Shown piece by piece: positions 5,002 to 49,930 of a stretch of 64,000 nt of DNA. Source of the DNA: an uncultured Gammaproteobacteria bacterium. Its GTDB lineage: Bacteria; Patescibacteriota; Microgenomatia; UBA8517. How positions within the stretch are numbered: the first letter of the stretch is position 1; the number at the start of each line of letters is the position of its first letter. The position numbers and the translations under genes were made by a program. The notes below the pieces were generated by a model. The model had not been told where the DNA came from. It saw only the letters and a list, made by a program, of their open reading frames with translations, and did no database searches. The stretch spans positions 184,754-248,753 of the forward strand of contig OZ246419.1 of NCBI GenBank assembly GCA_965231135.1. The letters run 5' to 3'.

Positions 5002-6681
5002 ATGAATCAAATTCTTAATAAGTCCAAGAAAATATTTTTATCAGAGCAGACTTCAATCCTTTCTGCTGCAAATGTAATTATGGTGATGACATTTTCATCG
5101 CTTATTTTGGGATTGCTGCAAAAGCGTGTGATATTAACCTTTTTTGATCAGGACCAATTTTCGCTTTTTTCTGCAGCATTTAGATTGCCTGATCTTGTTT
5201 TTTCTGTTCTTGTTTATGGAATGTTTGCTTCTGCTTTTATACCGATTTTTACAAAATTACTTCGACGAGGGAATAAAGAAGCATGGGAGACTGCAAGCCG
5301 CACTGTAAATATTTGTTTAATTTCATTTGCCTTTTTTGCAATACTGATTGGGATTTTTGCAGACCAATTTTATTCTTTGATTGCACCAGGATATACAGGA
5401 GCTGAGATTCATTTAATTGCAAACTTGGCACGGGTGATGTTTTTTGCACAAGGAATTTTTGTGATTAGTTATGTATTAACTAGTGTTCTTGAATCTTTGA
5501 GAAGATTTTTGATTCCTGCACTTGCTCCTGTATTTTATAATTTGGGATTAATAATTGGAACAGTGCTACTTCATAAACAACTTGGGCTTATGGCACCTGC
5601 TGTTGGAGTAGTTCTTGGAGCATTAACGCATTTTTTGATTCAATTACCACTTGCTTATCAGCTTGGATTTAGATTTGGAAAAAATATAAAACCAAACGAC
5701 GGAGTGAAAGATATTGCAAAACTTGCTGCTCCAAGGCTTGTTGATTTGGGATTTCAACAAATTGCTGATACAGTCGTGCTTTATTTTGCATCTTTAATTT
5801 CTGTTGCTTCTTATGGATATTTTACCCTTGCCAATTCATTACAGGCTGCGCCTGTCCGGCTTTTTGGAACAAGTTTGGCAAAGGCAGCACTGCCAACTTT
5901 AACTCGGGAAAATGAAAACTTACCAAAATTCCGCGATATTTTATTTAGGACAATTTACCAAATGTTTTTTTTGGTTGCTCCTGTTGTTACTTTATTGATA
6001 GTTCTTCGTATTCCTATTGTTAGAATTTTATTTGGAACTTATAAATTTGATTGGGATGCAACAGTCGAGACAGGGATGGTATTAACGGGATTTAGCGTAG
6101 GGATCGTCTTTCAGACTTTTGTGCCAATGCTTGCGAGAGGGTTTTATGCACTTCATGATACGCAAACTCCTGTAATTATTTCTGTAATTGGAGATTCGTT
6201 TGTGATTGTATCAAGTATATTTTTGGTAAGTAGCCTTCACATGTCTTCCTGGGCACTTGGATTTGCTTATTCGATTGGCGCTTTCATTGAAACAATAATT
6301 TTACTGATTGTTTTGAAACGTAAAATCAAAAACTTTTCTTTGGTCAAAGTAATATTGCCATTGTCAAAAACATTCTTTGCTTGCATTGTTTCAGGGGGAG
6401 TAATGTATTATTTACTTAAGTTTTTTGATAAATGGGATCCTATCAAAATAGCAAGACCAATTGCATTTCAGACGCTTGTAATTGATACAAGATATACTCT
6501 TAATTTGATTGTGCTTACAGGGCTTGTTGCAATTATTGGGATGGTTATATATATAGTATTGTCTTTTGTTTTGAAGTCACAGGAGTTAAATGACATATGG
6601 ATGACAATTTGGTCGAAGAGAGGATTTATTTTGCGAACACCTACAGAACCAGCCGAAGACCTTGAAAACGGAGTATCGTGA
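5002..6681 (+). CDS. murJ: lipid II flippase MurJ
   Basis: A 559-aa polytopic membrane protein. The N-terminal FRLPDLVF...GMFASAFIPIFTK block is typical of MurJ/MviN. Confidence 0.85.
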   Translation: MNQILNKSKKIFLSEQTSILSAANVIMVMTFSSLILGLLQKRVILTFFDQDQFSLFSAAFRLPDLVFSVLVYGMFASAFIPIFTKLLRRGNKEAWETASRTVNICLISFAFFAILIGIFADQFYSLIAPGYTGAEIHLIANLARVMFFAQGIFVISYVLTSVLESLRRFLIPALAPVFYNLGLIIGTVLLHKQLGLMAPAVGVVLGALTHFLIQLPLAYQLGFRFGKNIKPNDGVKDIAKLAAPRLVDLGFQQIADTVVLYFASLISVASYGYFTLANSLQAAPVRLFGTSLAKAALPTLTRENENLPKFRDILFRTIYQMFFLVAPVVTLLIVLRIPIVRILFGTYKFDWDATVETGMVLTGFSVGIVFQTFVPMLARGFYALHDTQTPVIISVIGDSFVIVSSIFLVSSLHMSSWALGFAYSIGAFIETIILLIVLKRKIKNFSLVKVILPLSKTFFACIVSGGVMYYLLKFFDKWDPIKIARPIAFQTLVIDTRYTLNLIVLTGLVAIIGMVIYIVLSFVLKSQELNDIWMTIWSKRGFILRTPTEPAEDLENGVS

Positions 6682-26559: not shown

Positions 26560-26799
26560 ATGAGTGGAGTAGAAACTTTATTAACAATTGTCGTTGTAGC
26601 TTTAGCGATACTTTTTATTTTTGTGGGAGTTCAAGTGACTTTAGTCATACTTGATTTAAGACGCACGATAAGAAGATTAAATAGTTTACTTGAAGATGCA
26701 ATTTTGGGTGGAGGATTAATAAGACCTGATAAATTAACTGGAGTGTTGGAGTTTTTTAGAAAGAAAAGGGAAACAGGCAGCCACGGACAGCAAATTTAA
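26560..26799 (+). CDS. hypothetical small membrane protein
   Basis: 79 aa with one TM helix. Confidence 0.3.
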   Translation: MSGVETLLTIVVVALAILFIFVGVQVTLVILDLRRTIRRLNSLLEDAILGGGLIRPDKLTGVLEFFRKKRETGSHGQQI

Positions 26800-28625
26800 T
26801 TTATTTTATATCTGAAAACTCTTAAGGCGTTAAAAATTGGAAGAAAGTCAGTTGCAAAATTATAAGCTGCAGCACCTTGCGGACCTATAAAATTTCCAAA
26901 AACTAACCCAAGCCCTAATGCGTTTGTTGCTCCCCATAAAAAGAAATTTTGGCGAGCAATGTTTTTAGTGTATTTGCTTAAATTGATTGCAGTCGTGAGT
27001 TTTAACAAATTATCTTGCATTAGAGCAATATCTGCTGACTCGATTGCGCTATCTGCTCCAATTGCTCCCATTGCTATTCCAATATCGGCAAGCTTAAGAC
27101 TTGCAGCGTCATTGACACCATCGCCAACCATGGCAACCTTACCTTTAGAGGATTTCAGGTAGGACTTGATGTAATTTAATTTGTCTTCAGGAAGAAGATT
27201 GGCATGAAATGTTTCTATGCCTACAACTTTCGCAACGCGAGCGGCGACTAAGTCATTATCTCCTGTAATCATGACAATATTTTTAACACCTTGATTTTTG
27301 AGAGCTGAGATAGTAATTCTTGCTTCAGGACGAATTTGATCTGCAAGAGTGAGGATTGATGCTAATTTTTTATTAACTGCCAGGTAAACGACCTGGAAAC
27401 CCTGGCTTTGATTTTCTTTTGCAATTTTCATCTCTTCATTTGTTATTTTTACTTTTTCATTCTTCATAAACTGAAGTTTGCCAGCAATAACCTCGCGCTT
27501 TCCAAAATTTGCTTTGATACCAAAACCTGCATACTCTTCAAATTTTTCTGGAGATTCTATTTTTAGACCATCGTTTTTTGCGTGAGCAATGATTGCTTTT
27601 GCTATTGGATGTTCTGAAACAGATTCAAGATCTGCGATAAGCTTGAGCGCTTCGTGACTTTTATATTTATTAAAGGTAATTATTTTTTCTGTTTTAACAT
27701 TGCCTTTGGTAAGAGTTCCTGTTTTATCAAATAAAACTGTTTCTAAATTAGATAAACCTTCAAGATATTCACTACCTTTGATAATTATTCCCTGTTTCCC
27801 AGCTTTTGCGATAGCCCCCCAAAAAGCCATGGGAATAGAAACTGCGATATCATCAGCACATGTTACAAGAAGAATGGATAAAATTAAATCAATATTTTTA
27901 GTGATCGTGAAAATAATAATTGAAAGAGATAAGGTTACTACTATATAAATAGTTGTGAATTTGTCGGCAACTCCCTGGATTCCCTGTTTTTCGTTTTGAG
28001 CATTTTTAATTAAGGAAACGATTTTCTCAAAAGTTGTATCTGCGCCGACTTTTTCTGTTTTAATCTCAAGCGATCCTGATAAATTTAAAGTGGAAGATAA
28101 AACTTTCTGGCCAACACTTTTAGTAACTGGCAATGATTCTCCGGTGAGGCTTGATTGATCAATACTGCCTTCACCTTCGATAATTTTTCCGTCGACTGGA
28201 ATTCTATCTCCTGCTTCAACAACTACAATATCTCCGACTTGAACTTTTTGTATGTCTACAGTTTTAATATCGCGGCCAACTTTTATTTTTACTTTTTCGG
28301 GGCGAAGCTTTAATAAACTTTTAACTGCATCATCTGCTTTGCTTCTCGTGTAATCTCCAAAAATTCTTGCACTGGTGATCATTAAATTAATAAAGGCAAC
28401 CGATGACCATTCCTGATGAATAAGAGAAACAAACAAAGCAATTGAAGCTAGTAAATCTACAGAAACTTTTTTGTCCTTCAGGGATTCTGCCGCACTAATT
28501 ATTACTGGAACTGTTGCAATAACGCCTACTATAGTTATTAGAGAATTTGACCAGGTGGATTTAAAAAGATAATAGAAGATTAGTGAAAGAATTAAAGAAA
28601 CAAGAATAGTAAAATTTATTTTCAT
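26796..28625 (-). CDS. cation-transporting P-type ATPase (P1B-like, no N-terminal metal-binding domain)
   Basis: DKTGTLT, MITGDN and VAMVGDGVNDAASL motifs. The TM6 region reads CADD rather than the CPC seen in most P1B ATPases. Confidence 0.8.
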   Translation of the reverse strand: MKINFTILVSLILSLIFYYLFKSTWSNSLITIVGVIATVPVIISAAESLKDKKVSVDLLASIALFVSLIHQEWSSVAFINLMITSARIFGDYTRSKADDAVKSLLKLRPEKVKIKVGRDIKTVDIQKVQVGDIVVVEAGDRIPVDGKIIEGEGSIDQSSLTGESLPVTKSVGQKVLSSTLNLSGSLEIKTEKVGADTTFEKIVSLIKNAQNEKQGIQGVADKFTTIYIVVTLSLSIIIFTITKNIDLILSILLVTCADDIAVSIPMAFWGAIAKAGKQGIIIKGSEYLEGLSNLETVLFDKTGTLTKGNVKTEKIITFNKYKSHEALKLIADLESVSEHPIAKAIIAHAKNDGLKIESPEKFEEYAGFGIKANFGKREVIAGKLQFMKNEKVKITNEEMKIAKENQSQGFQVVYLAVNKKLASILTLADQIRPEARITISALKNQGVKNIVMITGDNDLVAARVAKVVGIETFHANLLPEDKLNYIKSYLKSSKGKVAMVGDGVNDAASLKLADIGIAMGAIGADSAIESADIALMQDNLLKLTTAINLSKYTKNIARQNFFLWGATNALGLGLVFGNFIGPQGAAAYNFATDFLPIFNALRVFRYKIN

Positions 28626-35736: not shown

Positions 35737-35778
35737 CGACCTTAGGTCTACTTGGAGTGTAGACATAATTCTCGTCTG

Positions 35779-38700
35779 ATGGCAAATAAACAAAATCGCC
35801 GCAATTTTGGCAGAACAGAAAACAATTTACCTGAGCTTGATTTGTCTTTGGTTCAAAGACAATCTTGGGATTGGTTTTTAAAAGAAGGAATTTCGGAAGA
35901 ACTTACAAATATTTCTCCAGTTGAAGATTTTGCAGGAAAAAATTGGGAACTTTCTTTTGGTAAACATACTCTTGAAGCCTCTCAAGTTACCCCAAAAGAA
36001 GCAAGAGAAAAAGGAATAACATACTCAACTCCATTTAAAGTCGAAACAACACTCACAAATAAAAGAACAGGAGCATCTGTCACACAGGAAGTTTTCTTTG
36101 GAAATATTCCACAAATGACAACTGTTGGAACATTTATTATTAATGGAATTGAAAGAACTGTTATTAACCAAATCGTTCGAAGCCCAGGAGCATATTTCTC
36201 AGGAACTTTGGATGCAGCAAGCGGCCGTATGCTTTATAAAGCAGAAATAAGACCACTTCATCACGGAAGCTGGCTTGAATTTGAAACTGGACGAAACGAT
36301 GTTATTTCAGCTCGCATTGATCGACGCCGAAAGGTAAATGCCGCAACCATACTTCGCGCTCTTGGAATTTATTCAAATGATGAAATTACAAGAATTTTTG
36401 CTGATGTGAATAAAGACGGAAATCATAATTATGTACAAAAGACTATTGAAAAAGATCCAACAAGAACAAGAGAAGATGCACTTCTTGAAATTTACAAGAA
36501 ACTTCGACCTGGAGAACCAGCTCTTTTGGATAATGCAGAAACACTTTTCCATAACCTTTTCTTTGATAACCGCCATTACGACTTAGGAAAAGTTGGAAGA
36601 TATAAAATTAATAAGAGATTAGGACTTAATGTTGAAAATAATAAACAAAACTGGGTACTTACAAAAGATGATATTGTCCAAACACTTCATTATTTAATTG
36701 GACTTCAAAATGGAATTGGACGAGTTGATGATATTGACCATCTTTCAAACAGACGCCTTCGATGTGTCGGGGAACTTGTTGCAACTCATGCATTTCGTAC
36801 AGGACTTTTAAGACTTGAAAGATCTATAAAAGAGAAAATGTCTTTGGTTTCTCAAGAAGAAAAACCAAATCCATCAGCTTTAATTAACGCAAGACCATTA
36901 ATCGCTTCTTTGAATGAATTTTTCAGAAGCAATCAGCTTTCAACAATACTTGATAATACAAATCCACTTTCAGAAATAGATAATTTACGAAGAGTATCTG
37001 TTTTAGGACCTGGAGGAATTAATCGAGAACGTGCGAGCTTTTCAATCCGAGACGTTAATCCTTCTCAATATGGAAGAATTGATCCTGTCAGGTCTCCAGA
37101 AGGAATGAACATTGGACTTGTTACTTATTTAACTCTTTATGCACGTGTAAACGAATTTGGATTTATTGAGACACCTTACAAAAAAGTTGATAATAGAAAA
37201 ATTACTAATGAAATTGTTTATTTAACTGCTGACGATGAAGAGAAATATTACATTACTCACAACGGAATTAATATTGATGACAGCGGAAAAATAACAGACG
37301 ACAGAGTTGCTATCCGATATGCAGGAAACTTTACAGAAGGATCTTCAAAGTTGGTTCAATATATCGATTTGACACCAAGGCAGGTATTTGGAGCATCTGC
37401 ATCTTTAATTCCTTTCCTTGACCACGATGAAGGAAACCGTGCTCTTATGGGAAGTAACATGCAATGTCAGGCTGTTCCACTTGTTGCGCCAAGCTCACCA
37501 GTTGTTGGAACAGGAATGGAAGCGACTGTTGCCTCTTCAATGGGAAGAGTTGTAAAAGCTGAATATCCAGGAACTGTTTCTTTTGTTGATGCAGACAAAA
37601 TTGAAATTAAACTTGATAAGCAAAGCTTGTCAGCTAAAGCTGATAAAAAATTGCCTGACGATGCTGTTTTGTCTAGAGATGGTAAAACAATTACTTATTA
37701 TTTGACTAAATTCTGGAGAACTTCACAATCAACTTGTTATAACCAGAAAGCTAAAGTAGTTCTCGGACAGAAATTAAACCCTGGAGACTTAATAATTGAT
37801 GGACCTGCTACAGAAGACGGAGAACTTGCACTGGGTCAAAATTTAGTTGTAGCTTATGCATCAATTTCCGGATACGGATTTGAAGATGCAATTTTGATTT
37901 CTGACAGAATAGTTAAGGATGACCTACTTACTTCAATTAACATTCGTGAATATACAGCTGACGTTGTTGAAACAAAACTTGGACCTGAAGTTGTTACAAA
38001 AGATATTCCAAACGTTTCTGAAGACCAATTAGCTAATTTGGCAAGTGATGGAATTGTTGTTGTCGGAGCTGAAGTTCATCCAAATGACATCTTGGTCGGA
38101 AAAATTGCACCAAAAGGTGAAATGGAACTTACTGCAGAAGAAAGACTTCTTCGTGCTATCTTTGGAGAGAAAGCAAGAGAAGTCCGAGATACATCACTTC
38201 GAGTGCCACACGGAGAAGAAGGAATTGTTATTGATGTACAAGTACTTAGCAAAGAAAAAGGAGATGAACTTGCACCTGGAGTAATATCTTCTGTAATTGT
38301 TAAAGTTGCACAACTTCGTAAAGTAACTGTAGGAGACAAAATTGCAGGGCGACATGGAAACAAAGGTGTTATTTCAAAAATAATGCCTGAAGCTGATATG
38401 CCTTACTTGCCAGATGGAACTCCAGTTGATTTGGTTATATCACCTCTTTCGGTACTTGCTCGTATGAATCTTGGACAATTACTCGAATGTCATTTGGGAT
38501 GGGCACTTGATAAGAATCATTCGAAAGCAAGCGTACCTGTCTTTGATAAGATTCCAGAAAGCAAGATTCACGATGAACTTAAAGAGGCTGGACTTCCAGT
38601 TTCTGGAAAAACAAGACTTATTGATGGAAGAACTGGAGAGGCACTTTCTGAAGATACAGTTGTTGGAATTGGATACATCATGAAGCTTAAGCACATGATT

Positions 38701-41700
38701 GAAGATAAGACACATGCACGTAGCACTGGTCCATATTCTCTTGTTACACAACAACCACTTGGAGGAAAAGCACAAATGGGAGGACAAAGACTTGGAGAAA
38801 TGGAAGTCTGGGCACTTGAAGCACATAGAGCAGCTCATACTTTGCAGGAAATGTTGACAATAAAATCTGATGATATTGTAGGACGCGCTGCAGCATTTGG
38901 AGCAATTGTTAAAGGACAGGAAATTCCTGAAGCTAAAATACCTGAAAGCTTTAAAGTATTGGTTCGAGAACTTAATGCACTTGGACTTGCAATTGATGTT
39001 GATGGAACAATGGCAGCAGTTACTGAAGAGCACACAACTGATGACGGAGTAGTAATCCAAGAAAAGAAACAACCAGTTACTGATCCACTTTTAAAGCTTC
39101 GCGAACTCGAAGATCTTAAATCTTTGCAAATTAAACTTGCCAGCGAAGGTGAAATAAGATCCTGGAGCCGAGGAGAAGTTACAAAACCAGAGACTATAAA
39201 CTACAGAACACTTAAACCTGAAAAAGACGGACTTTTTGATGAGAGAATATTTGGTCCAACACGCGACTGGGAATGTTACTGTGGAAAGTATAAAAGAATT
39301 CGTTATAAGGGAGTAATTTGCGATAAATGTGGAGTTGAAGTTACAGAAAGCAGAGTTCGACGAGAGAGAATGGGACATATTGCACTTGCAGCTCCTGTAG
39401 TTCATGTATGGTTTTTCAAAGGAGCACCAAGCAAAGTATCTTTACTTCTTGATTTGCCTCCTCGCGCTATTGAGCAAGTTGTCTATTTTGCAAGATATAT
39501 TGTTATGAGCGTTGATGATAAAAAGAGAAAAGAAGCAATTGATGTCTTAATAAAGACTCGAGAAGAAAAAATTAAAGAAACTCGAGAGATTTCTGCAGAA
39601 CGCCGAGAACTTATAAAACAAGACGGAGAAGATCGTAAAGGAAAGATAGCAAACAGAATCAAAGATAAAGAACAAGCAGCTCTTGCAATCAGCGAAGTTG
39701 ATCTTGATGTACGTAAGAAAGAAACTACTTTGGTTGAAGAAGAAAAAGCAACTATTGAGAAAACAACCGAACTTTTTGATCGCATGACTGATTTGGTTAA
39801 GAAAATTAGTCCTTTTGGATTTTTATCTGAGGATGAATACGATCAGCTTTCAACTTATGATGTATCTGATTTTCTTGAAGTAAAAATGGGAGCAGAAGCT
39901 CTTCTTATAGCCTTAAGCAAACTTAATTTGGATGAACTTTCAAAGAGTTTGCGAGCAGAACTTGAAGGATTGCAAGGAAAAGGTGCAAGATATTTGAAAG
40001 TTGCAAAAAGACTTAAGCTTATTGACGGACTTCGTGAGGCAAAAGTAAGCCCAACAAGCGTTATTTTGAAAGTAATCCCAATACTTCCACCAGATTTACG
40101 ACCAATGGTCCAACTTGCTGGAGGAAGATTTGCAACTTCTGACTTGAATGATTTATATAGACGCGTAATAAATAGAAATAACAGACTTAAGCATCTTATT
40201 GGCCTTGGTGCACCAGATATTATTTTAAGGAATGAAAAAAGAATGTTGCAGGAAGCTGTTGACTCTTTAATTGATGCATCTCAGCGAAAAGCTATGCGAC
40301 GTGGACGAGGAAGACTTGCACTTCGATCACTTTCTGACATGCTTAAAGGAAAGCAAGGAAGATTTAGAGCAAATCTTTTGGGTAAGCGTGTGGATTACTC
40401 CGGACGTTCAGTTATTATTGTTGGGCCTGAACTTAATTTGAATCAATGTGGACTTCCAAAGGAAATGGCGCTGGAAATGTTTAAGCCATTTGTACTTCGA
40501 GAAGTTATTAAGCGAGAAATTGCACCTAATGTGAAATCTGCAAAGAATTTACTTGAACGCCGACCACCAGAAGTGTTTGATATTTTGGAAGAAATTACAA
40601 AAGATCATCCAGTGTTACTTAATCGTGCACCAACACTTCATAAACTTGGAATTTTGGCATTTTACCCAGTTTTAATTGAAGGAAGCGCTATCAGACTTCA
40701 TCCAGCAGTATGTTCTGGGTTTGGAGCTGACTTTGACGGAGATCAAATGGCAGTACATGTCCCACTTTCTAAGAAAGCAATCGAAGAAGCTAAGACTCTT
40801 ATGATGTCTGATAAGAATTTACTTAAGACATCTGACGGATCGCCTGTTGCAACGCCCGCTTCAAAGGAAATGGCGCTTGGAGTTTATTATTTCACAAGTT
40901 TAGATACAAGAATGAAAGCTTCTGAAACAATTTTTGCTGACAAAGCTGAAGCAATATTTGCTTATCAAATTGGAAAAGTAGCTTTAAGACAACAAATCAA
41001 GGTCAAAGTTGATAATGAAGTAAATGAAACAACTGTTGGACGCATTTTATTTAATGAAATACTTCCAGAAGGATTTAGATTTGTAAACGAAAACGTTTCT
41101 TCTGGAATTATTAAAGATTTAGTCACTGAAGCTTATACAAAAGTATCTCAAGAGAGACTTGTAAAACTTATTGATGATATTAAGAACCTTGGATTTGTTG
41201 GAGGAACAATTTCAGGACTTTCATTTGCGGTGTCGGATGCTGCAATATTTGAAGGAAAAGCAAAAATTATTAAGGAAGCAGATAAAAAAGTCGACGAAAT
41301 TGAAAAAAGTTTCCATCAAGGTCTTATTACAAACGAAGAAAAGAAAAGAAGCATTCAACAAATCTGGATTGAAACAACTGAAGAAATTGCTGACAAAACC
41401 TGGAATGTAATACCTGCTGATTCACCAATTCGCACAGTTATTGATGCTAAAGTGGGACGCACTTCCCGTGACCAGATTAAGCAGCTTGGTGGAATGAGAG
41501 GTTTGGTCGTTGATCCGCTTGGAAAAATCGTTGAACTTCCTGTCAAAAGCAACTTTAGAGAAGGGCTTTCAGTTTTTGAATATGTTGCATCAGGACGCGG
41601 ATCTCGTAAAGGACTTACTGATACAGCTTTGAAAACAGCTGATGCAGGATATCTTACACGTCGATTAGTTGATGTAACTCATGATGTATTAATTCGTGAA

Positions 41701-42780
41701 GAAGACTGCGGAACAAAAGACGGAATTCTTATTAAAAAATCAGTACGAGGAGGAAGTTTCTACAAGAGAATTTTTGGAAGATTTGATACAAACGGAGAAC
41801 TTATTGATGAAAAGCGAGCAAAAGAACTGGCAGATGATGCAAATGTTACAGAATTTGTAGTTCGTTCCCCTCTTACATGTAAGACAAGATTTGGAGTTTG
41901 CCAGAAGTGTTATGGATGGGACCTTTCAAATAAACAGGTTGTAGAACTTGGAATGCCAATTGGAGTTATTGCGGCACAATCAATTGGAGAACCTGGAACT
42001 CAGCTTACACTTAGAACCAAACATAGCGGAGGAGTTGTTGGAGCTGACGTTACACAAGGACTTCCAAGAGTTGAAGAGTTATTTGAATCTCGTATTCCAA
42101 AAACAGTATCGCCAATTTCTGAAATAGCTGGAAAAGTATCTATCAAAGAGAGCGAAGACGGGAATGTTGTTAAAGTCACAAGTGTTAATACCAAACCAAA
42201 AGAAGAGCGAGAATATATTATCGCAAAGACAAACAAGATTAGTGTTGAGGATGGACAACTTATCGATGCAGGAACACAACTAGCTAGCGGATACCTTGAT
42301 ATTAAAGAAATATTACAAGTACGAGGACTTGGAGCAGCACAAGAATATTTGGTAAATGAATTACAGGCAGTTTATGAATCACAGGGAATTTCAATTAATG
42401 ATCGCCATTTTGAAATCATTGTCCGCAAGATGTGTGATACAGTCCGCATTTTGACAAGCGGAGACAGCAGATTCTTGCCAGAAGAGCTTACTGATAAATC
42501 AACATTTGAAGAAGAAGTTGAAAAAGTTATCGCATCAGGCGGAGAAGCAGCAACTGCAAGACAAATTATACTTGGAGTCACAAAGAGAGCTTTGTACACA
42601 AACAGCTGGCTATCTAGCGCATCTTTCGAACAGACAACTGATGTTTTGGCCGAGTCAGCACTAGAAGGAAGCAAAGATCGCTTACTTGGACTTAAAGAGA
42701 ATGTTATTATTGGCCGCCTAATTCCAATTGATCCAAAGAGAGCGGCTCTTCATGGACAAGCTGAGCCTGCTGCTGTATAA
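35779..42780 (+). CDS. rpoBC: fused DNA-directed RNA polymerase beta-beta' subunit (rpoB-rpoC in one ORF)
   Basis: The ORF is continuous. The beta C terminus ([27 protein letters not shown]...[17 protein letters not shown]) joins, through a linker of about 45 aa, the beta' N terminus ([35 protein letters not shown] plus the Zn finger CYCGKYKR...CDKCGVEV). The start is taken at the first ATG (MANKQ); the track ORF begins 27 nt upstream at a TTG. Confidence 0.9.
37616..37646 (+). repeat. in-frame copy of the 31-nt intergenic palindromic element, inside rpoB
   Basis: ATAAGCAAAGCTTGTCAGCTAAAGCTGATAA encodes [10 protein letters not shown]. It matches the rpsO-pnp spacer element at 30 of 31 positions. 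Confidence 0.6.
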
Positions 42781-42788
42781 TTTAGCCT

Positions 42789-43241
42789 ATGCCAACGATT
42801 GCACAATTAATTAGAAAACCAAGAAGCAAAAAACCAACAAAGCAAAAGGCAACGTCTTTAAAATGGTGGTTTAATGCAAAGGACAGAAAATTTAAAAGAG
42901 AGTCTTCTCCTTTCAAAAGAGGAGTGGTGCTATCTGTGCGTACAATGACTCCAAAGAAACCAAATTCAGCTCTTAGAAAAGTGGCAAGAGTTCGACTTTC
43001 AAATAAACAAGAAGTTACAGCTTATATTATGGGTGAAGGACATGAGCTTGCAGAACATGCAATTGTTTTAGTTCGCGGAGGCCGTGTCAAAGATTTACCA
43101 GGAGTTAAATATCATATAGTACGAGGCAAAAACGATACAACAGGAGTTGTTGGACGAAAGACTGCAAGAAGCCGATATGGTACAAAGAGGGAAGGAGGAT
43201 CCGCCAATGCGAAGACAGCAAGCGCGAGTGCGACAGCTTAA
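42789..43241 (+). CDS. rpsL: 30S ribosomal protein S12 with a short C-terminal extension
   Basis: [19 protein letters not shown] and [17 protein letters not shown]. The tail overlaps the rpsG start by 35 nt. Confidence 0.9.
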
Positions 43242-43683
43242 CCCTGATCCAATTTATAATGACGTTTTAGTAAGTAAACTTATTAATCGTTCAATGCGCG
43301 ATGGAAAGAAAAGTGTTGCCCAAACTCAAATTTATAAAGCTTTTGAAATTATTAAAGAACAAACAAAAGAGGATCCAATGAAAATTTTCCACGCTGCTAT
43401 GGAAAATATTTCTCCAAACATGGAAGTGCGACCAAGAAGAATTGGAGGAGCTGCTTATCAAGTCCCAATGAGTGTACGAGGAACAAGACGAGAAACTCTT
43501 GCAATAAGATGGCTTGTGACTGTAGCTCGTACAAAATCAAACACTGAATTTCATAGTTTTGGAGAAAAGATGGCTTCAGAATTAATGGATGCATATAAAG
43601 GTGAAGGAATGGCAATGAAGAAAAAGAAAGACGTTGAAAATATGGCAGAAGCAAATAGAGCATTTGCTCACTTCAAGTGGTAA
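43207..43683 (+). CDS. rpsG: 30S ribosomal protein S7
   Basis: [19 protein letters not shown]...MRDGKKS. A GGAGG Shine-Dalgarno sits 8 nt upstream of the ATG at 43207; the track ORF is over-extended. Confidence 0.9.
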
Positions 43684-43687
43684 GTAT

Positions 43688-43957
43688 ATGGCTGAGAATT
43701 TAAGACTAAATCCTGACGAAGAAGAAGCAGCAGGTTGGGTTGCTAAAATGAATGAACCGAATGTATCTAGAGTATTAGATAGTTTACAAGATGATTATCC
43801 AGATTCCGATGTGGTGGTTAAACCTTTAATTTTGAATGAAGTTTATGGTGTTATATTTGGAAATAGAGGTAGTTCTACTAATAGATATTTAGTTGTTAAT
43901 GTAAGTATTAGACAAGATAAAGTGTACGGTACAGAAGTGAAAGAAGGAAGAATTTGA
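43688..43957 (+). CDS. hypothetical 89-aa protein inserted between rpsG and fusA
   Basis: The ATG lies 5 nt after the rpsG stop. Its own stop abuts the fusA ATG. No recognisable motif. Confidence 0.4.
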   Translation: MAENLRLNPDEEEAAGWVAKMNEPNVSRVLDSLQDDYPDSDVVVKPLILNEVYGVIFGNRGSSTNRYLVVNVSIRQDKVYGTEVKEGRI

Positions 43958-43958
43958 T

Positions 43959-46139
43959 ATGGCACAGGTACAAGCAACAAAGAAAAAGGCAGCGATGGTG
44001 ATGAGTACGACTACTGATCGTAATCTTCCAATGGAAAAAATCCGAAATATCGGGATTATTGCCCATATTGACGCTGGAAAAACTACAACTACTGAAACAA
44101 TTCTTTTTGAAACAGGCAGAGTTTACAAAAAAGGAGATGTAACTGACGGAACAACAGCAACTGACTGGATGCCTCAAGAGAGAGAACGAGGAATTACAAT
44201 AGTTTCTGCTGCTATCACAACTTTTTGGGATCCAAGCGAGCGAATTAAAGATTTCAAGAGTGCAGTAGAGGGCGGTAAATACAGAATTAATATTATCGAT
44301 ACTCCAGGACATATTGATTTTACGGCTGAAGTAGAGCGATCGCTTCGTGTACTTGATGGAGCTGTAATGGTTTTTGATGGACGAACTGGAGTTGAATCAC
44401 AATCAGAAACTGTTTGGAGGCAAGCTAATAAATATAACGTGCCGCGTGTTTGTATTCTTAATAAATTAAATTTAATTGGAGCTGACTTTGAAGGAAGCAT
44501 AAAATCCATTCATGAAAGACTTGGAGCAAACGCAAGCCCAATTAATATTCCAATAGGCAATGAACACGAGCTTCGTGGAGCAGTTGATCTTATTAAAATG
44601 AAAGCTTACACATACAAAGGAATTGAAGATAAAGATCTTACCGAAGAAGAAATCCCAGGAGATTTAATGGACAAAGCAAAAGAATTTAGAACAAAACTTA
44701 TTGAAGCTGTTGCGGAGTTTGATGATGAAGTACTTTCTAAATACTTGGAAGGACAAGAACTTACAGAAGTTGAAATAAAACGAGCTATTCGAAAAGGAAC
44801 AGTACAAGGAAAATTCTTCCCAATTTTGGGCGGAGACAATCGTATGGCAACTGTCCAACTTTTACTTGATGCAGTTGTTGAATACTTACCTTCTCCAAAC
44901 GATGTCCCTCCTGTCAAAGGAATTAATCCAAAAACTGGTTTGGAAGAAGAAAGAAAGCCAGAAAACAGTGAACCTTTTTCAGGGCTTGCATTTAAAGTTA
45001 TTACAGATCCACATGTTGGACGACTTGTTTATGTCCGTATTTATTCAGGAACCTTGAAACCTGGAGATGAAGTTTATAATGTTACAAAATCTCGAGGAGA
45101 GAGAATTGGAAAATTGGTTTTAATGCATGCAGACCAGAGAGAACTTATTAACGAAGCTTATGCTGGAGAAATTGTTGCTGTTGTTGGAATTAAAGATACA
45201 ACCACAGGAGACTCAATAACAAACCCAGCACATCCACTTCATTTGGAATCAATTACTTTTCCTGAGCCAGTGGTGTCTTTGGCAATTGAACCTGCTACAA
45301 AATCAGATCAAGAGAAAATGGGAATTGCACTTTCAAAACTTTCTGACGAAGATCCAACTTTCCATATAAAAAGCAATCCTGAAACTGGGCAAACAATTAT
45401 TTCAGGAATGGGAGAACTTCAGCTTGAAGTCTTGGTTGACCGTATGAAACGTGAATTTAATGTTGTTGCGACAACCGGAGCTCCACAAGTAGCTTTCAAA
45501 GAAACTATTAAGAAAGAAGGAGAAGGAGAAGGGAAATATGTCAGGCAAACTGGAGGCCGCGGACAATATGGACACTGTTTGCTTCGCGTTGAGCCAAAGG
45601 GAAGAGGAGAAGGATTTGAGTTTGTTAATGCAATTAAAGGAGGAGCAATTCCAGCTGAGTTTATTGCTCCAATTGAAAAAGGAGTTAAAGAGAAGCTTGA
45701 AAACGGAATTTTGGCAGGATTTCCACTAGTAGATATAAAAGTTACAGTTTATGACGGAAGTTATCATGATGTTGACTCTTCAGAAATGGCTTTTAAGATT
45801 GCTGGAAGCATGGCAGTTGAAGCTGCGTGCCGTAAGGCTGATATGATTCTTCTTGAACCAATTGTAAAAGTTGAAGTTTCAACTCCAGCTGAGTTTATGG
45901 GAGATATTATTGGAAGCCTTTCAAGTAAACGTGGACAAATTAGCGGAACTGAAGAAAAAGGAATGATGACTGTAATTAATGGAACAGCTCCTTTGATGGA
46001 ACTTAGCGGATATGCGACACAGTTGAGATCAATTTCTCAAGGAAGAGCTTCAGCTTATATCGAGCCTTCTCACTACGAGGAAGTTCCTGCAAATATTACT
46101 GCACAGATAGTTGCGAAGAGCGGAAAAGCTATAAACTAA
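43959..46139 (+). CDS. fusA: elongation factor G
   Basis: NIGIIAHIDAGKTTTTE and DTPGHIDF plus domains II to V, 726 aa. Confidence 0.9.
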   Translation: MAQVQATKKKAAMVMSTTTDRNLPMEKIRNIGIIAHIDAGKTTTTETILFETGRVYKKGDVTDGTTATDWMPQERERGITIVSAAITTFWDPSERIKDFKSAVEGGKYRINIIDTPGHIDFTAEVERSLRVLDGAVMVFDGRTGVESQSETVWRQANKYNVPRVCILNKLNLIGADFEGSIKSIHERLGANASPINIPIGNEHELRGAVDLIKMKAYTYKGIEDKDLTEEEIPGDLMDKAKEFRTKLIEAVAEFDDEVLSKYLEGQELTEVEIKRAIRKGTVQGKFFPILGGDNRMATVQLLLDAVVEYLPSPNDVPPVKGINPKTGLEEERKPENSEPFSGLAFKVITDPHVGRLVYVRIYSGTLKPGDEVYNVTKSRGERIGKLVLMHADQRELINEAYAGEIVAVVGIKDTTTGDSITNPAHPLHLESITFPEPVVSLAIEPATKSDQEKMGIALSKLSDEDPTFHIKSNPETGQTIISGMGELQLEVLVDRMKREFNVVATTGAPQVAFKETIKKEGEGEGKYVRQTGGRGQYGHCLLRVEPKGRGEGFEFVNAIKGGAIPAEFIAPIEKGVKEKLENGILAGFPLVDIKVTVYDGSYHDVDSSEMAFKIAGSMAVEAACRKADMILLEPIVKVEVSTPAEFMGDIIGSLSSKRGQISGTEEKGMMTVINGTAPLMELSGYATQLRSISQGRASAYIEPSHYEEVPANITAQIVAKSGKAIN

Positions 46140-46141
46140 AT

Positions 46142-46414
46142 ATGGAAAATATTTCTAGAAGAGGAGTCGGATTTAGATTGGATAGTCGCAAAATTGGCGA
46201 AGAAGTTACTATTGTTCCAAGAAGTGTTGATCAATTGACAATGAATTATGTTGTCTTGGTTGTGGATCGTAAAGATTCAAAAAAACAACCAGGTAATCCC
46301 ATGATTAAGGTGAGGTTTGCGAATCAGGGTGGTAGTGGTTTTTATCTTGGCGGAGGTACGGCAGCCGTACCAGTTAAAACTTCATTTATAGGTCTTTCTG
46401 AAGAAGATTTCTAA
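46142..46414 (+). CDS. hypothetical 90-aa protein (inserted between fusA and tuf)
   Basis: No motif. It starts 3 nt after the fusA stop. Confidence 0.35.
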   Translation: MENISRRGVGFRLDSRKIGEEVTIVPRSVDQLTMNYVVLVVDRKDSKKQPGNPMIKVRFANQGGSGFYLGGGTAAVPVKTSFIGLSEEDF

Positions 46415-46440
46415 CGTGGAAAAGCTAAAGCATAAAATAA

Positions 46441-46941
46441 ATGAAAAGATCTTCAATTCCTAAGGAATTAGAACGTGAAGTTCTAGTTGAAGCTGGTCAC
46501 AGATGTGCGATTCCTACTTGTCAGAGAACTCCCGTAGAAATAGCTCATATAGATCCATGGTTTAAAGTGAAAGAGCATAGATTTGAAAATTTGATTGCTC
46601 TTTGTCCAAATTGTCATGATAGATATGATAAAAAACATGAAATTGATAGGAAATCTATGCTTCGATATAAAGCTAATCTTTCGGTAATTAATAATAGATA
46701 TGGCGACCTAGAGAAAAGAATACTTACACTTTTTGCTGAAAGTCCAAATGATGAATTTGTTTGGGTTGTTGGAGGATTGGATATATTATTAATGTATTTA
46801 TTGAGAGATGGATTATTAGTTCCTTCAGGTAAGGATAGTGGAGTTATACTTTCCGGTATTCCTTCTGCTAAAGAATATCGTTTGACTACAAAAGGCAGAG
46901 GGTTTGTTAATAACTGGGTTTCACCAAGAAAATTAAGTTGA
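46441..46941 (+). CDS. HNH endonuclease
   Basis: EAGHRCAIPTC...EIAHIDPW...NLIALCPNCHDRYD is a Cys4 HNH core. A C-terminal domain of about 80 aa follows. Confidence 0.7.
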   Translation: MKRSSIPKELEREVLVEAGHRCAIPTCQRTPVEIAHIDPWFKVKEHRFENLIALCPNCHDRYDKKHEIDRKSMLRYKANLSVINNRYGDLEKRILTLFAESPNDEFVWVVGGLDILLMYLLRDGLLVPSGKDSGVILSGIPSAKEYRLTTKGRGFVNNWVSPRKLS

Positions 46942-46952
46942 TTAATTGCCTG

Positions 46953-46981
46953 TTGACAGGCTTAAACTAGCCTCATATAAT
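46953..46981 (+). promoter_or_regulatory. consensus sigma70 promoter TTGACA-17-TATAAT for tuf
   Basis: Perfect hexamers at 46953-46958 and 46976-46981. A leader of about 70 nt with a small hairpin (ccctagaattaggg) follows. Confidence 0.6.
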
Positions 46982-47055
46982 ACCTACAGTTATCTCGGCA
47001 AATGTCGGGATTTACTTTTCCCTAGAATTAGGGTAATATACAAGAATAAATAAAT

Positions 47056-48252
47056 ATGGCAGGAGATGTAAAACAACATTTTGATCGCAGCAAACCACAT
47101 GTCAACATTGGTACTATTGGCCACGTTGATCACGGAAAAACAACTTTAACTTCAGCAATTGCTACAGTTTTATCAAAGCAACCAGGAAACACATCAAAAG
47201 CTATGGCTTATGACCAAATCGATTCTTCTCCTGAAGAAAAAGCAAGAGGCGTCACCATTAACATTACGCACGTCGAATACGAAACAAAGAAAAGACATTA
47301 TGCTCATATCGATGCTCCAGGACATGCAGATTATATTAAGAACATGATTACAGGTGCAGCTCAAATGGACGGAGCAATCTTGGTTGTCTCAGCACCAGAT
47401 GGAGCAATGCCACAAACAAGAGAACACGTAATCCTTGCAAGACAAGTCAACGTTCCAGCACTTGTTGTAGCACTTAACAAAATTGATATGGTTCAAGATG
47501 AAGAGCTTGTACAATTGGTTGAAGATGATATCAGAAGCTTGCTTGAGAAATATCAATATCCAAAAGATACTCCAATAGTTAGAGTTTCAGCTCTTAAAGC
47601 ACTTGAAGGAGATAAAGATGCTGAAGCGCAGATCATGAAATTAATGGATACAGTTGATGAATATATTCCAGATCCAGTTCGAGAAACAGATAAACCTTTC
47701 TTAATGCCTGTTGAAGATGTCTTCTCTATAAAGGGGCGAGGAACAGTTGTTACCGGACGCGTTGAACGTGGAATGCTTAAAGTAAATGAAGAAGTTGAGA
47801 TTGTTGGAATTAAAGCAACTGCAAAATCAGTTGTTACGGGAATTGAAATGTTCCGCAAAACACTTGATGAAGCACAAGCTGGAGATAACACAGGACTTTT
47901 ACTTCGAGGAATTGAAAAAGATGATATAGAACGCGGACAAGTTTTGGCAAAGCCAGGCTCAATTACACCTCATACAGAATTTGATGCTGAAGTTTATATT
48001 CTTAGTAAAGAAGAGGGCGGACGCCATACACCATTCTTTACAGGATACAAACCACAATTTTACATTAGAACAGCTGATGTAACTGGAGAAGTCACACTTA
48101 ATGAAGGGGTTGAAATGATAGTGCCTGGAGATAATGCCAAAATGAAAGTTAAATTAATAGTCCCTGTAGCTATGGAAGAGGGACTACGCTTTGCAATTCG
48201 AGAAGGAAGCAAAACAGTAGGCGCTGGTGTTATCACCAAGATTATAGCCTAA
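47056..48252 (+). CDS. tuf: elongation factor Tu
   Basis: [19 protein letters not shown] and NKIDMV motifs, 398 aa. Confidence 0.95.
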
Positions 48253-48269
48253 GCACTTTAAAACGATTT

Positions 48270-48581
48270 ATGCCAGTTGGAAGACTTAGAGTCAAATTAA
48301 AAGCATATGATGCTCGCGTTCTAGATGAAGCAGCAAGTAAAATACTTGAGACTGCTATTGCAACCGGCGCAAAAATCGTTGGACCAATCCCCTTACCTAC
48401 AAAAAGAAGTATAGTTTCTATTGTGCCATCAACCTCAAGAGGAATTAAAAATCATCAAGATCATTATGAAATGTTAGTTCATAAAAGATTAATTGACATT
48501 GTGGATCCATCTGATCGTACAATTGATTCATTATCTAATTTAGATCTTCCAGCAGGTGTCTCCATTGAGATTAAGATGTAA
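48270..48581 (+). CDS. rpsJ: 30S ribosomal protein S10
   Basis: RLRVKLKAYD...GPIPLPT matches S10. Confidence 0.9.
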   Translation: MPVGRLRVKLKAYDARVLDEAASKILETAIATGAKIVGPIPLPTKRSIVSIVPSTSRGIKNHQDHYEMLVHKRLIDIVDPSDRTIDSLSNLDLPAGVSIEIKM

Positions 48582-48587
48582 GATTGC

Positions 48588-49022
48588 TTATATCTTAAAA
48601 TCCTTCTTAATTTTATTAAGTATTTTTTCTTTAATGATTGGAAAATTGACTATTTCTTGAGTGTATTGTTCTTTATTTAGGTCCGAAATTAGATTTCCAA
48701 AGCCAGACTTGCTTTGTTCTGATTTCTCTGGTCTAATTCCTGCAAAACCAACTGCTCCACAGTGAGGGCATGGTCCTTCTATCCACTCTTTGGCAGTACA
48801 TTTCCAGCATTTACCACATCTACAACAATCTCTTAATATGCATTCATCCGGACTGTTTGTATCTTTTATGCCACAAAAAGGTAAAACCTCTTTTGGTTTT
48901 GTCATGGTAGTTACAACTTTATTGCAATCTGGACAGACGCTTCCTGCTGGGAGAAATGCCCCGCATATTTGACAGAAAGATGTGTTGTCTAGTTTTTCTG
49001 AAGACATTTGATGATTATACAA
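48588..49022 (-). CDS. cysteine-rich small metal-binding protein (15 Cys) on the opposite strand to the flanking ribosomal genes
   Basis: CQIC...CPDC form a zinc-ribbon pair. A dense CILRDCCRCGKCWKC...CPHC cluster follows; it contains CxxCxxC...CP. Confidence 0.45.
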   Translation of the reverse strand: MYNHQMSSEKLDNTSFCQICGAFLPAGSVCPDCNKVVTTMTKPKEVLPFCGIKDTNSPDECILRDCCRCGKCWKCTAKEWIEGPCPHCGAVGFAGIRPEKSEQSKSGFGNLISDLNKEQYTQEIVNFPIIKEKILNKIKKDFKI

Positions 49023-49101
49023 TAAATCGAACTTAAATTCTATTATTATAGGTTTAAATAGAGTATTTTATTTTTTTGTAACGCATAGCATTTAGCCTTG
49101 C

Positions 49102-49130
49102 TTGCAAGCTTGCCTTCAGTTTGATATAAT
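49102..49130 (+). promoter_or_regulatory. promoter TTGCAA-17-TATAAT with an extended -10 (TGaTATAAT) for the rplC operon
   Basis: The -10 is at 49125-49130, preceded by TG at 49122-49123. Confidence 0.5.
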
Positions 49131-49201
49131 TTCACTTAATAAATGAGGAGGGGAACCGCCTAACTAACCTCGAGGTAGTCTTGATTTGAAACCAGTAACT
49201 G

Positions 49202-49224
49202 GGTGTCGACGAGACACCTTTTTT
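49202..49224 (+). terminator. hairpin ggtgtc-gacga-gacacc plus U6 in the rplC leader (candidate attenuator)
   Basis: 6-bp GC-rich stem and TTTTTT, lying 38 nt upstream of the rplC ATG. An orphan AGGAGG and a 6-codon mini-ORF (49143-49163) lie upstream in the same leader. Confidence 0.45.
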
Positions 49225-49261
49225 ATTGTCTCTAGCTAGGCATGTTAGCGTTACGACTAAT

Positions 49262-49930
49262 ATGATAAATAAAGTCCTTGGAATTAAAAAAGAAATGGGA
49301 GCTACTTTTAACGAAGGAGTAAGAGTTCCTGTGACTAAAGTTGCAATTGAAAATTGTGTTGTGACTGAAGTCAAAACACAAGACCGTGACGGCTACTGGT
49401 CAGTCCAACTTGGTGTAGGACACAAGAAAGCAAAGAATATTACCAAACCAATGAAAGGCCATCTTCTCAAAACAAAAGACGCAAAAGAAACTCCAAAATA
49501 TTTACCAAGATTTATTAAAGAAATAAGAACTCAAGAAGAACCTACGGAAAAAGTCGGAAATGAAATAAAAGCTTCCGACATTTTTGTTTCTGGAGATAAG
49601 GTTAGCGTTACTGGAGTTTCTAAGGGAAAAGGGTTTGCTGGAGGAGTTAAAAGGTGGCACTTTAGAGGAGGAAGCAAGACTCATGGACAATCAGACCGTT
49701 GGAGAGCACCAGGATCAATTGGACAAGGAACAACTCCAGGAAGAGTTTATAAAGGCAAACACATGGCAGGACACATGGGAGTAGAACAAATAAAAGTTAA
49801 AGGACTCAAAATAGTTTCAGTTGATGCAGAAAAGAATGAAATACTTGTAAGCGGAGCAATTCCAGGAACAGTCGGAGGTTTAGTAATTCTTGAAAGAATT
49901 GGAGAAAGAAAGGAACAAGCAAATGCTTAA
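49262..49930 (+). CDS. rplC: 50S ribosomal protein L3
   Basis: MINKVLGIKKEMG...VPVTKV...GKGFAGGVKRW. The start is taken at the internal ATG at 49262. Confidence 0.9.
   Translation: MINKVLGIKKEMGATFNEGVRVPVTKVAIENCVVTEVKTQDRDGYWSVQLGVGHKKAKNITKPMKGHLLKTKDAKETPKYLPRFIKEIRTQEEPTEKVGNEIKASDIFVSGDKVSVTGVSKGKGFAGGVKRWHFRGGSKTHGQSDRWRAPGSIGQGTTPGRVYKGKHMAGHMGVEQIKVKGLKIVSVDAEKNEILVSGAIPGTVGGLVILERIGERKEQANA

Follow-up and report, generated by a model that had tools for sequence, protein, structure and literature searches.

The window analyzed here, the whole 64-kb stretch of DNA, comes from a Patescibacteria metagenome-assembled genome (MAG) and contains two open reading frames (ORFs) lodged between the genes for the elongation factors EF-G and EF-Tu. 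The left flank is fusA (EF-G; 43959-46139, + strand; Pfam GTP_EFTU, EFG_III, EFG_IV, and EFG_C), and the right flank is tuf (EF-Tu; 47056-48252, + strand; Pfam GTP_EFTU, D2, and D3). The window EF-G shares 75-90% identity with EF-G of Woesebacteria, and the window EF-Tu shares 78-85% identity with EF-Tu of relatives. An earlier note on this DNA had placed a 90-aa ORF and a 166-aa HNH ORF between the two genes, and we confirmed the coordinates of both on the + strand: an orphan ORF of 90 aa (46142-46414, termed ORF90 below) and an HNH nuclease gene of 166 aa (46441-46941). The left edge of the insert is the fusA stop codon. At the right edge, ATTGCCnGTTGACA, the ancestral sequence immediately 5' of the -35 box of the tuf promoter, resumes directly 3' of the HNH stop codon; therefore, in the junction alignment with relatives, the insert spans approximately 46140-46943 (+ strand, ~0.8 kb), and none of the examined relatives has it. 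The tuf promoter itself (TTGACA-17 nt-TATAAT; 46953-46981, +) bounds the insertion slot on the right and is followed, before the tuf start codon, by a leader hairpin with a T-run (46992-47011, +), within a conserved leader element annotated at 46992-47019.

Neither an integrase, a transposase, nor terminal repeats were found at the insert, and the repeats that were found were short and at chance level. Likewise, no intron, intein, or known RNA element was detected at the insert; an Rfam scan of 43000-49500 at E ≤ 1 returned three sub-threshold chance matches, none of them inside it. A paralogue search revealed no second copy of ORF90 or of the HNH gene in the window. The two gene junctions of the insert, namely, the fusA stop/ORF90 start (copy 1, 46122-46140, +) and the ORF90 stop/HNH start (copy 2, 46418-46436, +), form repeat family D2 and share approximately 30 nt of similarity, GGAAAAGCTATAAACTAAATATGGAAAA versus GGAAAAGCTAAAGCATAAAATAAATGAAAA, with P ~0.006-0.01 in a targeted local alignment that was picked post hoc. 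Copy 2 reads 'GKAKA*', an echo of the fusA tail 'GKAIN*', and the EF-G tail of the window is short, ending in '...AKSGKAIN*', where the closest relatives end in '...AK(S/A)GKVEMARG(N)*'. Both copies precede start codons, and -10-like A/T boxes often lie just 5' of an ATG in this genome. The similarity may be a duplication scar, with ORF90 having arrived separately, or a mere shared start-region motif, and we did not rely on it.

The composition of both genes is host-like. The HNH gene has a GC content of 0.333, a third-position GC content (GC3) of 0.162, and a codon adaptation index (CAI) of 0.695, and ORF90 has a GC content of 0.377 and a CAI of 0.606; both genes fall inside the range of the window's own genes, for which the CAI spans 0.596-0.794. 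The shift in composition or codon usage that the earlier note had proposed to look for is thus absent, and the values are compatible with long residence as well as with a compositionally similar donor. Both insert ORFs are recorded solely from one Patescibacteria MAG, on a contig of 810 kb, and this MAG is the sole member of the protein clusters of ORF90 and of the HNH protein. Such uniqueness to a MAG is what a chimeric junction produced by assembly or binning would also give. The joins are seamless, however, with the ancestral sequence 5' of the -35 box resuming at the HNH stop, and the host-like composition and codon usage, the presence of both proteins in two sources (NCBI and Logan), and the length of the contig all speak against an artefact, which we regard as extremely improbable. 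As a separate observation, the window's EF-G itself was not returned near 100% identity in the protein search (best match 90%), though both insert ORFs of the same MAG were.

To place the insert among relatives, EF-G-anchored retrieval yielded 80 species representatives, the closest being Woesebacteria/Microgenomates at 75-78% identity; a further protein search yielded closer relatives at 86-90% EF-G identity, and four of these loci were added, giving 84 related str loci in all. Using tblastn, we found a homolog of ORF90 or of the HNH protein in none of the 80 species representatives and in none of the four closer relatives. This result indicates that the 0.8-kb insert is specific to the window genome, and the earlier note's view of the segment as an insertion, rather than as two genes conserved at this position across the lineage, is borne out at all 84 loci. 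Nine of the twelve closest species representatives for which both genes were retrieved have a fusA-tuf spacing of 62-128 nt, and the other three carry different insertions of 0.7-1.7 kb. In the 55 loci that hold both genes, fusA and tuf are separated by a median of 115 nt, with gaps longer than 400 nt in 15 loci and longer than 1 kb in 12; a further 12 loci have no tuf within 3 kb of fusA. An interrupted fusA-tuf junction is therefore common in Patescibacteria, and the premise that the order rpsL-rpsG-fusA-tuf is almost invariably contiguous across bacteria does not hold for this group: the comparison of junctions upholds the uniqueness of the ORF90/HNH insert but not the rarity of an interruption as such. 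A literature search on fusA-tuf gene order in the candidate phyla radiation returned nothing relevant.

The junction varies even among close relatives. At 88-90% EF-G identity, four lineages, the window included, show four distinct junction states: the junction is empty in the first relative (L213), holds ORFs of 226 and 91 aa with no assigned function in the second (L214), and holds a 527-aa beta-helix/dockerin protein together with ORFs of 495 and 77 aa in the third (L216). In other genomes, the same slot is occupied by an AbiEi/AbiEii toxin-antitoxin (TA) pair, by two AAA_14/DUF4143 ATPases, or by a Phd/YefM-like antitoxin. Where cargo is present, it always lies upstream of the tuf promoter, and the rpsG-fusA and rpsJ-rplC junctions vary likewise across loci. 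We also observed that L214 (8011-8286) and L216 (5742-5975) encode homologous small hydrophobic membrane-like proteins of 77-91 aa, ending in HCGV...C, directly 5' of the tuf promoter; this protein is found neither in the window nor in L213.

The site at 46953-46981 matches the sigma-70-type consensus at 12/12 positions, as the earlier note had reported, but the accompanying claim that tuf had acquired this promoter failed. In 11 of the 11 aligned relatives, including those with contiguous fusA and tuf, TTGACA is invariant and TATAAT is conserved 5' of tuf, and in the relatives with contiguous genes, the -35 box lies 7-12 nt past the fusA stop. The three closest relatives (L213, L214, and L216) share the same arrangement of promoter and leader, and the order of elements in close relatives is TTGACA, a 17-nt spacer, TATAAT, a hairpin with a T-rich run, and the tuf start codon. 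Because the same promoter occurs in relatives with and without cargo, it was not acquired through the insertion; it is ancestral in the Woesebacteria/Microgenomates clade and predates the insert. More likely, this pre-existing boundary between transcription units is what makes the junction tolerant of cargo.

The leader downstream of the promoter is a conserved feature in its own right. A hairpin of 5-9 bp occupies the same position in 12 of 12 relatives with differing stem sequences, according to single-sequence folds, and a second -10-like box lies near the tuf ATG in most relatives. The hairpin and T-run start 10-15 nt past the promoter and have the shape of an intrinsic terminator, and a conserved GGCTnAnTTAGCC motif was seen inside the promoter spacer. 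The set of leader elements was seen 5' of tuf in the window (46953-47055) and in L007, L011-L017, L023, L213, L214, and L216. The hairpin could act as an attenuator, give rise to a tiny RNA, or terminate the upstream unit.

The HNH protein was assigned by profile searches, with Pfam PF01844 (HNH) at 34.9 bits (cut-off 21.4) and PF13391 (HNH_2) at 23.2 bits (cut-off 21). An alignment of 40 homologs shows no variation at the Cys4 zinc site (C22, C27, C55, and C58) or at the catalytic H36, N50, and H59, and the window protein keeps 27 of the 27 invariant columns. Since the protein is full length and retains all the family-invariant residues, the gene is an intact nuclease gene rather than a relic. 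In the AlphaFold2 (AF2) model, which has a predicted local distance difference test score (pLDDT) of 89.8, an N-terminal beta-beta-alpha HNH region leads into a long helical stretch (aa 70-100), after which comes an alpha/beta domain at the C terminus; the beta-beta-alpha fold expected of the HNH superfamily is thus predicted here. The HNH (beta-beta-alpha-metal) domain, with the Cys4 site and H36, N50, and H59, corresponds to approximately aa 8-68 (46462-46644, +), and the C-terminal winged-helix-like domain, preceded by the long helix (aa 70-86), corresponds to approximately aa 87-160 (46699-46920, +). Among solved structures, EcoKMcrA is the top match in both structure and sequence. The C-terminal domain is covered by no Pfam or PADLOC model, and members of the family give weak PadR, HTH_45, and Rep3-WH2 matches. 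The prediction thus places a McrA-like HNH domain N-terminal to a winged-helix-like one, and in this model, the long helix may mediate dimerization. These results agree with the earlier description of a Cys4 HNH core with a C-terminal domain.

The nuclease belongs to a large family, in which 2,264 proteins match the query at E ≤ 0.001. The best 120 of these 2,264 matches are approximately 165 aa long, 50-71% identical, and nearly all full length. Hosts include Patescibacteria, Chloroflexota, and Actinomycetota such as Micromonospora, and the family comprises more than 2,000 clusters at 90% identity. The closest homolog shares 71% identity and lies on a contig with a GC content of 0.35. Over the homologs, GC follows that of the host, from 0.36 to 0.64, which indicates that widely differing genomes maintain it as a resident gene under purifying selection. 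At the 75 loci that hold full-length homologs, no recurrent neighbor was found except between near-identical genomes, a result that is firm only for low- and mid-GC loci, as ORF calling was unreliable in high-GC loci, where spurious long ORFs were called. Twenty-four homologs of 40-64% identity lie on IMG/VR contigs, three partial matches were found on plasmids, and none was found in 50,697 sequenced phage genomes. The family is thus large, mostly chromosomal, and solo, in that it has no conserved partner. A literature search on 'PDC-M68' returned nothing relevant.

The contexts of individual homologs are diverse. On a 5.2-Mb contig (L211, 3101-10391), hsdS and hsdR of a type I restriction-modification operon are separated by an inserted homolog of 62% identity (P0037) together with three small ORFs, and an AAA_15/21 ATPase and a PIN protein are encoded upstream. 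Another homolog overlaps the gene for an OLD-like AAA_15/21 ATPase, whose Toprim-like C-terminal motif was read by eye; another lies beside a methyltransferase, with an AlbA_2-like protein, also read by eye, downstream; and one lies near a KAP NTPase. Homologs also occur among integrases, BrnT/BrnA, and RE_NgoBV, and some occupy ordinary metabolic neighborhoods. In the loci with precomputed gene calls, homologs never adjoin translation genes. This last result bears on the alternative that the nuclease was recruited for a host function, in translation or in regulation via its winged-helix-like domain, and kept in the str region for co-expression. Such recruitment would be in keeping with the host-like composition and codon usage, the probable co-transcription with rpsL-rpsG-fusA, and the strong conservation of the nuclease family, but the gene is absent from every relative examined, those at 88-90% EF-G identity included, and its homologs lie in unrelated contexts. 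Recruitment would require the gene to be kept at this position throughout the clade, and its absence there contradicts that reading. The suggestion of recruitment in the earlier note thus found no support, and we consider it very unlikely.

A further alternative is that the gene is a free-standing homing endonuclease that spreads by intronless homing: the enzyme would cut in or near fusA or tuf of genomes without the gene, and repair would copy the gene with fusA and tuf as homology arms. The setting resembles what such an element would leave, since the gene sits tightly between two highly conserved genes without integrase, transposase, or terminal repeats, close relatives show presence and absence at the site, an HNH nuclease joined to a DNA-binding domain is a typical homing-endonuclease architecture, and the short similarity of the two gene junctions is a possible insertion scar. 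However, no homolog lies at the fusA-tuf site of any of the 84 related loci, and the lack of a recurrent flanking gene in the 75 full-length loci argues against a conserved homing site. The absence from the phage genomes and the absence of any intron, intein, or known RNA element point the same way, and the other cargo found in the slot is unrelated, so the variability of the slot is independent of the HNH enzyme. Homing is therefore unlikely in our assessment, and the variant raised by the earlier note, a homing-endonuclease relic, is further contradicted by the full length and intact invariant residues of the protein.

We favor, with somewhat more than even confidence for the reading as a whole, that the insert is genome-specific accessory cargo in a variable slot and that it encodes a solo defence-type DNA nuclease, possibly a Type IV-like one. 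Confidence differs between the parts of this reading. That the two genes are accessory cargo in a hypervariable slot between the fusA stop and the ancestral promoter of tuf is held with high confidence. That the protein acts as a solo, chromosomally resident, DNA-targeting defence-type nuclease is a function assigned by analogy, for which the case is about evenly balanced. The earlier suggestion of selfish or defence-type cargo fits both the content of the same slot elsewhere (AbiEi/AbiEii, AAA_14/DUF4143, and Phd/YefM-like genes) and the settings of homologs in a restriction-modification operon, beside an OLD-like ATPase, and among integrases.

Several observations weigh against this reading. 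The PADLOC matches extend over 20-50 residues, all in the HNH core, and the whole protein is spanned by no defence-family model. Composition, being host-like, adds no separate evidence that the gene is foreign. Defence-island settings are anecdotal, amounting to approximately 6 of the approximately 12 loci with precomputed gene calls, and a defence gene would be expected to show less identity across phyla than the approximately 60% seen here. The limit of the neighbor result to low- and mid-GC loci counts here as well, as does the domain order of the window protein, HNH and then winged helix, which is the reverse of that in characterized wH-HNH Type IV enzymes.

The favored reading runs as follows. 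In the Woesebacteria/Microgenomates clade, the classical str operon is already divided: rpsL-rpsG-fusA forms one unit, and tuf, under a promoter of its own, forms another. An insertion at this split disrupts nothing, and different lineages hold different cargo there for that reason. ORF90 and the HNH gene would then form the tail of the rpsL-rpsG-fusA transcript; as no terminator-like site was predicted between 46139 and 46941, that is, between fusA and the end of both ORFs, their expression probably relies on transcription reading through from the rpsL promoter (42753-42781), which lies within the end of rpoBC upstream of the rpsL ATG at 42789. The winged-helix-like domain would bind DNA, possibly with dimerization via the long helix, and would position the HNH domain for cutting. 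With neither a cognate methyltransferase nor an immunity partner, a nuclease has to avoid cutting the genome that encodes it, and it would do so most plausibly by recognizing a feature of foreign DNA; a modified base, the cue used by Type IV restriction enzymes, is one example. The McrA-like catalytic domain is in keeping with this.

ORF90 is probably a real, young small gene, to judge from its coding statistics. Its in-frame codon log-likelihood (0.268 bits per codon) exceeds that of every off-frame control (maximum -0.203) and corresponds to the 14th percentile of genuine in-frame segments of 270 nt; the chance of an equally long stop-free run in a random 301-nt stretch is approximately 0.04. 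No family in Pfam, NCBIfam, PADLOC, or PHROGs matches it, so the profile searches that the earlier note proposed for both ORFs gave an assignment for the HNH protein alone. Among 5.8 billion proteins, ORF90 matched only itself, and an AF2 prediction from the single sequence gave no usable fold (pLDDT 37.5). When 1.84 billion representatives were searched exhaustively with HMMER, five giant Big_7 Ig-repeat surface proteins gave weak, repeated matches of approximately 30 aa to ORF90 residues 2-33. These 30-aa matches were summed over repeats, and we discarded the likeness to Big_7 as noise, with at most a strand-level resemblance.

The arrangement of the two genes raises the alternative that they form a TA or toxin-immunity module in which ORF90 neutralizes the nuclease. 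They are adjacent on the same strand with tight spacing, the small ORF comes first as in type II TA operons, and TA modules fill the same slot in other genomes. ORF90 has no homolog anywhere searched, however, and the absence of a conserved upstream partner in the 75 HNH loci indicates that the nuclease generally needs none; the conservation of the pair across homologs that marks type II TA systems was likewise not observed. We consider such a module quite improbable.

The genes around the insert show related features. A fused rpoBC (35752-42780, +), a single uninterrupted ORF of 2342 codons, precedes rpsL (42789-43241) and rpsG (ending at 43683); the closest relatives likewise have RpoBC as a fusion, with a predicted length of 2311 aa in L213 and 2318 aa in L214. 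The rpsG-fusA gap contains a 107-aa ORF (43634-43957, +), the codon statistics of which are coding-like (0.247 bits per codon). In relatives, the rpsG-fusA slot holds an fn3-like protein of 238 aa in L213 and insertions of 1-3 kb in L008-L010, L014, and L020. Downstream of tuf, the window contains rpsJ and then rplC, and between these lies a 144-aa Cys-rich ORF on the opposite strand (48588-49022, -) with several apparent CxxC pairs, zinc-ribbon-like in appearance, and a weak codon statistic (0.026). It has a positional homolog in L213 (8829-9092, -; tblastn E=1.3e-9) and is thus older than the fusA-tuf insert.

Upstream of rplC (start at 49226), the layout is similar to that of tuf: a promoter-like TTGCAA-17-TATAAT with an extended TG lies at 49102-49130 (+), and a GC-rich hairpin with a T-run at 49201-49219 (+) ends 7 nt 5' of the rplC start. 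Most genes in the window lack a Shine-Dalgarno sequence, and many have a TATAAT-like box ending 5-10 nt 5' of the ATG, for example, at the starts at 5002, 10770, 26796-28625 (-), 29462, 30817, and 42789. This pattern suggests widespread use of leaderless mRNAs in the host organism.

The finding is real but fairly ordinary: it adds a further accessory nuclease gene to a slot whose content varies. Its wider value may lie in two directions. The frequent turnover of cargo inside the str/S10 block is a caution against taking 'universal' operon synteny as the yardstick for anomalies in Patescibacteria, and the cargo at these junctions suggests where streamlined genomes store accessory and defence genes. 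The family of approximately 165-aa HNH plus winged-helix-like proteins is large, strongly conserved, and uncharacterized, and it would offer a compact candidate for biochemical work on a possible modification-dependent or structure-specific nuclease. A more ambitious proposal, which we advance tentatively and regard as doubtful, has two separate parts. These proteins would be very widespread, minimal, single-gene Type IV-like defence nucleases whose domain order is opposite to that of the known wH-HNH enzymes. The junctions of translation operons (rpsG-fusA, fusA-tuf, and rpsJ-rplC), for their part, would be the main slots for cargo and defence genes in the tiny genomes of Patescibacteria. If the latter is true, cargo at these junctions would ride on the strongest transcripts of the cell.

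Finally, we compared the protein and its locus with known systems. IscB has a similar HNH core (NCBIfam NF040563, E=1.5e-7; PDB 9k2z, E=0.0018), but the NF040563 score of 30.8 bits, against a cut-off of 175, covers the HNH core only, and the window protein has no RuvC domain and is approximately one third the size. An IscB or HEARO RNA-guided nuclease was rejected, as Rfam detected no omega-RNA or HEARO-type RNA in 43000-49500 and no full-length match was obtained. Membership in Septu (PtuB), CBASS (Cap5), Zorya (ZorE), and Shedu was rejected as well, because the matches were to the HNH core only and the partner genes are absent from the window.

Free-standing HNH homing endonucleases of phages (T4 Mob-type and I-HmuI-like) are likewise wedged between conserved genes without mobility genes, and the window gene shares with them a position between conserved genes with presence/absence polymorphism, since relatives at 75-90% EF-G identity lack it. 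Unlike those enzymes, the window family has neither a recurrent insertion site nor a match among the 50,697 phage genomes, the 84 related str loci hold no homolog at the same target site, and viral HNH proteins match it weakly in structure (E ≥ 1.8e-3).

The Type IV enzymes EcoKMcrA and ScoMcrA have the McrA-type HNH catalytic domain in common with the window protein. The PADLOC mREase_IV models match the HNH core in 31 of 40 family members, and the window protein was not matched by them at E ≤ 0.01. In McrA proteins, however, a DNA-reading domain precedes the HNH domain in a chain of 277-560 aa, whereas the window protein has the HNH domain first and is 166 aa long; there is no similarity beyond the HNH core, and modification dependence is putative for the window protein. 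The window gene stands alone as Type IV genes do, flanked by fusA and tuf and with no recurrent neighbor in the 75 loci. The wH-HNH Type IV enzymes, in which a winged-helix sensor of DNA or its modification is fused to an HNH nuclease in a stand-alone gene (PMC11037411), follow the same design logic as the window protein. Stand-alone fusions of winged-helix domains and nucleases have been argued to probably read modified DNA (PMC11037411). The locus, in turn, resembles accessory hotspots with core genes on either side, as well as the insertions that separate concatenated translation operons (PMC6735719), in which variable cargo likewise sits at a fixed boundary between transcription units. Compared with those hotspots, the boundary here falls within a set of genes that model bacteria keep together as one str operon, and the cargo is small, consisting of one to three genes.

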